From the NCBI GenBank assembly GCA_963737905.1, contig CAVTUQ010000037.1, positions 128,001 through 192,000 on the forward strand: 64,000 nucleotides of DNA, given 5' to 3'. A program made the translations under genes and the position numbers. Position 1 is the first letter of the stretch, and every line of letters starts with the position of its first letter. The notes beneath the pieces were generated by a model, which was given only the letters and a program-made list of their open reading frames with translations, searched no databases and was not told where the DNA came from. Positions 17,108-17,797 of this stretch are shown here, piece after piece. The DNA comes from an uncultured delta proteobacterium. Lineage in GTDB: Bacteria; Desulfobacterota; Binatia; UBA9968.

Positions 17108-17472
17108 TGAGGGCGTCAAGCGGGCGATGACTGTGGAGCATCGTAAATAACCCGCGCTCCCGATGAATTTGAACATTTTATGGCAGCTCACCCGGGCCGG
17201 CCCTCTGAATGAAGATCAGAGTGATTGAAACTCTACGGACGGGCATTTATATGATCCAGCGCCCCTATCGGATCCTAATTAAACACACAGAAGCAAACTG
17301 CAGTCCTACATTTCTTGCGTCCCGTGCTGGCGTGTTTGTCTGGTCGTTAATAAAACACGCTCTTATTATTTCTTTTCTCTAAATTCGTCTCTGACACCGT
17401 TGTTGTACTAAAATCCCGTTTAGGTGAAAATAAAAAAAATCAAAGAAAATTTTGTAAAATGATATTTTTTTC

Positions 17473-17502
17473 TTGACATACAATTTGTTGTGCCGTTATA
17501 AT
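17473..17502 (+). promoter_or_regulatory. Consensus sigma70 promoter with AT-rich UP region
   Basis: TTGACA-N18-TATAAT, preceded by A/T tracts. Confidence 0.8.
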
Positions 17503-17616
17503 CGCCGCACCTACAAAATGTGGGAGGGTTTTTTGAGATTATCTTTCTTAGCCTGAGCCAACACTTACTTCCTCTTACTAAAAGCCCACCGCATGGAATT
17601 TTAAAAGGAGGTACTT

Positions 17617-17667
17617 ATGGCAGTAAAGAAGAAAGCCAAGAAGAAAGCCAAAAAGAAAAAAAAGTAA
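17617..17667 (+). CDS. 16-aa lysine-rich micropeptide MAVKKKAKKKAKKKKK
   Basis: Strong SD AAGGAGG 5 nt before ATG, with its own promoter and terminator. It is below the ORF-track size cutoff. Confidence 0.65.
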   Translation: MAVKKKAKKKAKKKKK

Positions 17668-17751
17668 CTAAGTTTTGAGATGTGGGGTTGCGGCGGTGAA
17701 CTGAAACCCTCCTTTATCTCAGGCGCTCGGATAGCCGTTCTGGCTATCTAG

Positions 17752-17797
17752 AAAACAGAGCCCTCCGATCAGCCAAGTCGGGGGGCTCTGTTTTTTT
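17752..17797 (+). terminator. Rho-independent terminator
   Basis: AAAACAGAGCCCTCCGA...TCGGGGGGCTCTG followed by T7. Confidence 0.85.

Follow-up and report, generated by a model that had tools for sequence, protein, structure and literature searches.

A conserved polylysine micro-gene of uncultured soil bacteria and the complementary untranslated regions of its predicted messenger RNA

Is a short locus that carries its own promoter and terminator around an open reading frame (ORF) of just 16 codons a gene for a peptide, a regulatory RNA, or the leader of the gene that follows it? The question is raised by positions 17,473–17,797 of a 64,000-nt stretch of DNA from an uncultured delta proteobacterium of the class Binatia (GenBank assembly GCA_963737905.1, contig CAVTUQ010000037.1, positions 128,001–192,000 of the forward strand), which is referred to as the window and to which all coordinates refer. 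We conclude that this tiny gene of uncultured soil bacteria is real, highly conserved and apparently strongly expressed. The element is most likely a messenger RNA (mRNA) and the peptide its functional product, as suggested by coding-type selection on the ORF, by richer and longer homologues in related families, and by the survival of the small gene where the α/β hydrolase gene downstream has been lost. In the reading we favour, which we consider about as apt to be right as wrong, a polycationic peptide is made in bulk from an mRNA whose untranslated regions (UTRs) at the 5′ and 3′ ends pair to gate its own translation.

The peptide, MAVKKKAKKKAKKKKK, consists of 16 Ala and Lys residues, 12 of them Lys, and its ORF follows a strong Shine-Dalgarno sequence (SD), as an initial annotation of the window had described. 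We collected 77 loci with 45 distinct ORF sequences, which end in TAA (37) or TAG (8) and encode 18 peptide variants of 12–19 aa, all of them Lys-rich. In an alignment of 49 sequences (A2), which is the basis of the column, pair and fold counts given here, the SD and the ATG are invariant, and the minor-allele frequencies at the first, second and third positions of the sense codons are 0.023, 0.010 and 0.242, making third positions some 10–20 times more variable than first and second positions. All 148 gap runs within the ORF are multiples of three. This third-position variability and the in-frame gaps point to selection on the encoded residues, which suggests that the ORF is under coding-type selection and that the peptide is probably made. 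We note that, in a different frame, a 52-codon ORF with a GTG start (17520–17678) runs across parts of the leader and the small ORF; indels in the leaders of relatives, of which no count was made, suggest that it is not conserved.

The source genome has one copy of the 371-nt locus. In our first genome set the locus was detected, with a DNA identity of 67–87%, in 22 of the 24 genomes from its family (f1) and in all five from the sister family (f2). A class-wide sample gave 54/63 and 4/4 genomes, respectively, and no RNA match was found in a third family of the same order (f3) in either the first set (0/11) or the class-wide sample (0/27). It should be noted that the tallies and alignments take in four unpublished genomes (G006, G012, G119 and G400) and that no claim depends on these alone. 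An exact-pattern scan of species-representative genomes, anchored on element B′ (Table 1), returned 66 stretches, 57 of which have a Lys-rich ORF 30–46 nt 5′ of the motif; among the remaining nine, seven have record titles that name other phyla, one is in apparently coding, GC-rich sequence, and one has only 75 nt upstream. The titles of the carrier records are Deltaproteobacteria, Syntrophobacter or Syntrophobacteraceae, or 'Candidatus Binatia' metagenome-assembled genomes. Three complete loci (L022, L055 and L075) were also seen on contigs whose titles name Chloroflexota, Verrucomicrobiia and Candidatus Eisenbacteria, for which mislabelling or mis-binning seems likelier than transfer between phyla.

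The initial annotation had also proposed a strongly promoted, structured transcript, and three lines of evidence agree with this. The promoter hexamers match the consensus at 12 of 12 positions, and among the 49 relatives TTGACA is kept in 49, TATAAT in 32 and the 18-nt spacer in 43; taking A17509 as the transcription start, the leader is 108 nt long, close to the 110 nt first estimated. The 289-nt fold has a z-score of −4.29 compared with 200 shuffles (terminator included). RNA libraries also contain the element: a word search with a 1.4-kb query found small shares of the query in 12 runs, and in four metatranscriptome runs from four studies contigs of at least 99% identity cover 17509–17771 only. 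No RNA-library contig extends past 17771, and the hydrolase gene and the upstream region have no contig cover in the same four runs, although contigs cannot prove absence. As a weak hint only, one contig has 17509 as its first position, in exact agreement with the start expected from the −10 hexamer. The RNA was assembled even from runs of just 14–23 million letters. The transcript is apparently discrete and abundant in these libraries. As a separate observation, the 37 nt 5′ of the −35 hexamer (17436–17472) are conserved almost like the hexamers themselves and, since this exceeds what a generic UP element needs, they may include a binding site for a regulator.

Table 1. Features of the polylysine locus and of the gene downstream, in window coordinates.
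Feature	Position	Strand	Remarks
A/T-rich block	17436–17472	+	Resembles a promoter UP element; nearly invariant in the alignments; ends in a T-run before TTGACA
Sigma-70-type promoter	17473–17502	+	TTGACA 17473–17478, 18-nt spacer, TATAAT 17497–17502
Predicted transcript, 289 nt	17509–17797	+	Start predicted from the position of the −10 hexamer; end placed at the terminator end
Element A, SD-like GGGAGGGTTT	17522–17531	+	5′ arm of putative long-range helix H1
Element B, (C)GCCTGAG	17550–17557	+	5′ arm of putative long-range helix H2; position 17550 is A in the window, leaving 7 bp only
Pyrimidine tract TACTTCCT	17566–17573	+	Local pairing with the SD possible; position and sequence vary among relatives
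SD, AAGGAGG	17605–17611	+	5 nt before the ATG; columns invariant
ORF for MAVKKKAKKKAKKKKK plus TAA	17617–17667	+	ATG at 17617, TAA at 17665–17667; 16 aa
G/U-rich tract 3′ of the stop codon	17677–17698	+	Conserved in the alignment
Element A′, AAACCCTCCT	17704–17713	+	3′ arm of putative H1; the CCTCCTT in it copies the core of the 16S anti-SD
Element B′, CTCAGGCG	17718–17725	+	3′ arm of putative H2; invariant in 49/49
Hairpin	17729–17749	+	Conserved loop GTTCT; compensatory changes in 7/8 pairs
Intrinsic terminator	17755–17797	+	GC-rich stem, then T-run; compensatory changes in 11/14 pairs
α/β hydrolase gene, 271 aa	17839–18654	+	Conserved downstream partner by synteny; Pfam Abhydrolase_6

Whether the ends of this RNA pair is a question of structure, and here the predictions of the initial annotation differ in how well they stand. 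The 3′ hairpin and the terminator are borne out by changes on both sides of 7/8 and 11/14 pairs, respectively. Two crossing long-range helices had been proposed as well, and these hold as conserved complementarity between the 5′ UTR and the 3′ UTR of one mRNA, without covariation. H1, formed by elements A and A′, would have 10 bp, with 93.9% of cells paired, six pairs that vary on one side only and no double change, while H2, formed by GCCTGAG (17551–17557) and CTCAGGC (17718–17724), would have 8 bp in most relatives, with 99.2% of cells paired and seven of the eight pairs never varying. Taken as a whole, the feature goes far beyond chance. Because covariation backs only the hairpin and the terminator, we regard the long-range helices as conserved and complementary but unproven; formed together, they would make a pseudoknot. 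Mean column identity is 0.90–0.98 in A, B and the A′–B′ region, compared with 0.86 in the ORF.

Both of the anti-SD tracts that had been noted are present, although only one of them is well kept. Element A′ holds the near-invariant CCTCCTT (17708–17714), and CCUCCUU is common to the 3′ end of the genome's own 16S ribosomal RNA (rRNA), GGATCACCTCCTTTCT; the tract TACTTCCT sits in a variable stretch. Duplex energies in the window are −17.2 kcal/mol for A:A′ and −13.2 kcal/mol for B:B′, and the SD is a possible alternative partner for A′ (−12.4 kcal/mol). In local minimum-energy folds the SD is paired with an upstream all-pyrimidine partner in 38/49 sequences.

Complementary ends were also found around longer ORFs in two other families of the class. 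In family f12, CUCGCCUGAG upstream and CUCAGGCGAG downstream of the ORF are kept in all 11 fetched loci amid otherwise different UTRs, and these H2 arms are predicted by consensus folding to form a 10-bp helix, which would be independent support for H2. The ORF of family f10 is likewise enclosed by a different putative helix, CCAGCAGC with GCUGCUGG (read by eye). We also observed that eleven f12 leaders (L087–L095, L100 and L101) have a purine-rich run of 35–45 nt with several SD-like GGAGG or GAGG motifs 5′ of the H2 arm, and the module looks rearranged between the families, with a post-stop G/U-rich tract in f1 and a purine-rich leader run in f12.

Three other structures were considered and rejected. 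A local 3′-UTR hairpin of the post-stop G-rich tract with A′/B′ appears in 45/49 single-sequence folds, but its fixed-register pairs are kept in only 14–47 of the 49 and consensus folding gives −0.02 kcal/mol, so it was rejected as a defined helix. A pairing suggested by RNAalifold between CCCACC (17585–17590) and the post-stop GUGGG shows uncompensated G-to-A changes, and the 5′ arm of a 5′ hairpin, CCTACA/TGTGGG, varies without compensation (both judged by eye in the 49-sequence alignment).

In the mechanism we favour these parts would act together as follows. The peptide would be a polycation made in bulk that binds polyanions (DNA, RNA or ribosomes), with a composition like that of histone-H1 tails and 'PAKKA' repeats. 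In the mRNA, the SD-like GGGAGGGUUU at the 5′ side would pair with the anti-SD copy AAACCCUCCU in the 3′ UTR, and GCCUGAG with CUCAGGC, the two pairings together enclosing the ORF in a loop some 145 nt long. This closed form would make the message more stable, in the way reported of hbs, and would hold the 3′ anti-SD copy off the real SD; should the 5′ decoy become unavailable, CCUCCUU could cover AAGGAGG and stop translation, a kind of masking reported of icaR. The terminator would end most transcripts, and the hydrolase gene would be reached only by read-through, since the 41 nt between the two are too few to hold a separate promoter. The translational gating put forward by the initial annotation stands to the extent that the SD-like and anti-SD-like elements are present and conserved; the gate itself, like the function of the peptide, the formation of the helices and the read-through, is something we infer.

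A more elaborate version of this reading is a 'mini-protamine' system in which the polylysine of 12–19 residues, made in bulk, would be a free polycation that helps to manage nucleic acids or ribosomes, the decoy SD and decoy anti-SD would form a pseudoknot loop, and the decoy SD would choose between the anti-SD copy and a terminator arm, such that a single RNA would govern how much peptide is made, how stable the RNA itself is and how far transcription reads through into the hydrolase gene. We put this forward tentatively, as on balance doubtful.

The peptide is no orphan, as positional homologues of 12–78 aa occur in other families of the class. In f12 the ORFs have 25–40 aa (e.g. MAAKKKATKSKAKKKAPAKKSGAKKKK), and in f10 they have 34–37 aa, with the hydrolase gene following in some genomes. 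In family f9 an ORF of AKKAPAKK repeats and 12–78 aa was found at 15 of 26 hydrolase loci, ending 71–85 nt before the hydrolase gene. One f9 genus (L148–L161) has ORFs of 12, 22, 35, 56, 63, 66, 68, 71, 75, 77 and 78 aa some 70–310 nt 5′ of the hydrolase gene, a repeat-length polymorphism in the number of AKKAPAKK units. Low-complexity repeats of Lys and Ala, with or without Pro, are present as AKKK units in the window peptide and AKKAPAKK in f9, and the homologues of up to 78 aa contain Pro, Thr, Val and Arg. What the other families have conserved is the basic ORF, and not the UTR sequences. The window peptide appears to be the shortest version, specific to its lineage, of a group of basic Lys/Ala(/Pro) ORFs of 12–78 aa that spans the class, and because lengths vary by repeats, sometimes within one genus, we suggest that the peptides bind polyanions non-specifically, as tails of the H1-like or PAKKA kind do.

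The gene downstream is where the favoured reading meets its main rival. The hydrolase ATG (17839) lies on the same strand, 41 nt past the terminator, and the description of the transcript as stand-alone is only partly right because, for all that the small gene has its own promoter and terminator, just a terminator parts it from this conserved neighbour. A hydrolase homologue lies 3′ of the small gene in 40 fetched f1 and f2 loci (a redundant and partly truncated set) and follows in 4/4 of the wider f12 loci examined. The order of small ORF, terminator and hydrolase gene recurs in f1, f2, f12, f9 and some of f10, and, being found in at least four other families, makes the small gene the promoter-proximal unit of a conserved module. 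In f3 a hydrolase homologue is present in two of five genomes with no basic small ORF upstream, and outside the class none of 27 hydrolase loci has a credible one (two regex matches held internal stops). The gene upstream encodes a sigma-54 response regulator or, in f12, an enolase.

The hydrolase itself gives little indication of what the module does. Its predicted structure (AlphaFold2; mean predicted local distance difference test score 86) matched only generic esterase, monoglyceride-lipase and haloperoxidase folds in Foldseek, and all NCBIfam matches are far under their cut-offs, leaving no specific functional clue. Asp212 and His239 are invariant in an alignment of nine sequences (A1), and the nucleophile position is Ser (HSxG) or Asp (HDxG) depending on the member, with AMDLG in the window.

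Such a module could alternatively be a leader peptide with an attenuator, in which translation of the Lys codons would report the supply of lysyl transfer RNA or ribosome performance and decide between termination and read-through into the hydrolase gene (and those for TlpA and CcdA), the peptide being a by-product. A short ORF with 12 Lys codons ahead of an intrinsic terminator, a same-strand gene 41 nt further on without space for a promoter, and an order of genes kept across the families listed above are what such a system would have. The GGAGGG motif occurs twice, in element A and in the 3′ arm of the terminator (17780–17787), CCCUCC also occurs twice, in A′ and in the 5′ arm of the terminator (17760–17767), and with the GGAGG of the SD several exchange pairings are therefore possible. 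One of these, between the 5′ GGGAGGGUUU and the 5′ arm of the terminator (−16.7 kcal/mol, compared with −17.2 kcal/mol for A:A′; 95.6% of cells paired), would be the antiterminator, with AAACCCUCC as the anti-antiterminator, and the terminator U-tracts are interrupted in several relatives. However, the candidate antiterminator shows no covariation beyond that of shuffled alignments (350/500 shuffles equal), and its central A-U pair is broken in 8/49 sequences, in which the terminator arms co-vary without it. A′ lies 37 nt past the stop codon, a distance beyond the reach of a terminating ribosome. The downstream genes, which encode the α/β hydrolase, a TlpA/ResA-like oxidoreductase and a CcdA/DsbD-type membrane protein, are unlinked to lysine metabolism, and homologues of up to 78 aa with Pro, Thr, Val and Arg are unlike leader peptides. 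Moreover, in f1 loci without the hydrolase gene, where TlpA-like or CcdA-type genes come next on the same strand, the small gene is intact and unchanged. Taken together, we think an attenuator unlikely.

A further observation concerns the junction of terminator and hydrolase gene in f12, where three loci (L091, L092 and L094) have an ATG a few nt past the U-run of the terminator and the GAAGGGC of its 3′ arm is a candidate SD. With this ATG as the candidate start, read-through into the f12 hydrolase gene and its translation may both be coupled to unfolding of the terminator.

The RNA might instead act in trans, as a dual-function or regulatory RNA whose exposed CCCUCCUU masks the SDs of other mRNAs, or whose (AAR)n and G-rich tracts titrate an RNA-binding protein, with translation secondary. 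The ORF is an (A-R-N)n repeat, the motif to which Hfq binds with its distal face; the RNA is discrete and apparently abundant in RNA libraries, and its UTR elements are as well conserved as the ORF (0.90–0.98 compared with 0.86). We nonetheless find this explanation quite improbable, given that the SD, start and stop are invariant or maintained, that GCN codons stay in frame, that the anti-SD tract has strong partners in the same molecule, that no target was found (no search aimed at one was made), and that other families have kept the basic ORF and not the UTR sequences. That the peptide is a tiny lineage-specific ribosomal protein (cf. bS22, bL37 and Thx), made in step with ribosomes from an mRNA that mimics the 16S 3′ end for autoregulation, is slightly less probable still, for while the near-consensus promoter with its A/T-rich upstream block, the extreme basicity of the peptide, a 3′-UTR CCUCCUU as in the genome's own 16S rRNA and the precedents for very small, basic, lineage-specific ribosomal proteins (PMC5876184, PMC10081302) would all suit it, lengths of 12–78 aa set by repeat number even within one genus are unlike a fit to a fixed rRNA pocket, the gene lies outside any ribosomal-protein operon, and the homologues of 27, 35 and 75 aa have no counterpart among PDB chains at E-values up to 10 (weak evidence, as these are of low complexity).

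Returning to the bulk-made peptide and its self-gating mRNA, several points weigh against this reading. A conserved, promoterless hydrolase gene directly downstream fits a leader or attenuator equally well, RNA contigs cannot reveal transcript ends, strand or abundance, and the existence of the peptide and its binding are deduced from sequence alone. A length of 16 aa is also below the minimum of the family and structure tools. The long-range helices show compensatory changes in 0/18 pairs, and the invariance of H1 and H2 could equally mean that these are motifs bound by a protein or by the ribosome. The two helices cross with a linker of just 3–6 nt between their 3′ arms, and when the sequence is folded singly, its minimum-energy folds contain neither of them. 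Finally, the homology of the longer ORFs is argued from position, composition, the N-terminus MAAKKKA shared by f1 and f12, and the H2 arms, and no significant alignment links them with the window peptide.

Neither the RNA nor the peptides are covered by Rfam, Pfam, NCBIfam or PDB sequences, in keeping with the initial view that the element belongs to no named RNA family. With Rfam 15, nothing in the entire window reached a family's gathering score; in E-value mode the best was ohsC_RNA, at 30 bits compared with a gathering score of 50 and over the hairpin and terminator only, and the nearest leader, Phe_leader on the minus strand, was noise (17.9 bits compared with 55). Pfam and NCBIfam returned nothing for homologues of 27, 35, 37, 40 and 56 aa, and the match of NF038053 to the 75-aa homologue was not significant (E = 0.3; 11 bits compared with a cut-off of 80). 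No PDB sequence matched the 27-, 35- and 75-aa homologues, with the caveat already given, and a search for homologous proteins with the 40- and 56-aa sequences found no match, which is no evidence of absence for queries of such low complexity. The ESM Atlas gave only unnamed clusters of 30–39 aa and, as a weak lead, a cluster bearing HC2 at a score of 0.82, and we found no poly-Lys small gene, Lys leader or new deltaproteobacterial ribosomal protein described in the main texts of the literature, supplementary files aside. What is new is the class-wide set of basic ORFs and its pairing with the hydrolase; a gene for a small basic protein and an mRNA with pairing UTRs are known kinds.

If the peptide is made, its gene would be, to our knowledge, among the shortest conserved protein-coding genes in bacteria, and standard gene calling would miss a gene this small. 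The mRNA would offer an example from nature of 'closed-loop' pairing in a bacterial message that carries its own SD and anti-SD decoys, and the unannotated pairing of a basic micro-protein with an α/β hydrolase across the class hints at a shared function.

Parts of this arrangement can be recognised in known systems. The leader-peptide attenuators, of which his, trp, pheA and thr are examples, likewise have a short ORF with many codons of one type and, after it, a terminator and a promoterless gene on the same strand; they differ from the locus described here, where the downstream genes are not lysine-related, no conserved antiterminator is shown and homologues reach 78 aa. The tiny ribosomal proteins bS22 and bL37 (PMC5876184, PMC10081302) are similarly small, highly basic, lineage-restricted and missed by gene callers, and differ in having a fixed length and a specific sequence, whereas here repeats give 12–78 aa and no PDB chain matches. 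The 'PAKKA' tail of the Mycobacterium smegmatis Ku protein is reported to modulate DNA binding (PMC3553676). This tail and other H1-like tails (NCBIfam NF038053 and Pfam HC2, PF07382) resemble our ORFs in composition, repeat style and plasticity of repeat number; the ORFs are free-standing, with 12–78 aa, and are not tails of folded proteins, and the window peptide has no Pro.

The closest parallels for the mRNA concern messages whose own ends pair. The product of hbs is HU, a folded protein of 92 aa. In Bacillus subtilis a 14-bp helix that joins the 5′ UTR and the 3′ UTR of the hbs mRNA modulates RNase attack and ties stability to translation initiation, as reported (PMC5737220). In this respect hbs is like the polylysine locus in being a very abundant mRNA with a small basic product, a strong SD and 5′/3′-UTR complementarity, and unlike it in that a folded protein takes the place of a 16-aa low-complexity peptide, the sequences share no similarity, and no SD/anti-SD decoy pair is described; the pairing is reported for hbs and is a deduction from sequence here. 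The icaR mRNA of Staphylococcus aureus offers the other half of the proposed mechanism, as a UCCCCUG motif in its 3′ UTR pairs with the SD and can block initiation, as reported (PMC3868564). The two messages have in common a C-rich, anti-SD-like 3′-UTR motif complementary to their own SD. Their products are unrelated, and unlike icaR the window has a second and stronger partner for this motif, the 5′ GGGAGGGUUU (−17.2 kcal/mol compared with −12.4 kcal/mol for the SD). As this out-pairs the SD for A′, the default state of the polylysine mRNA may be one in which the SD is free.

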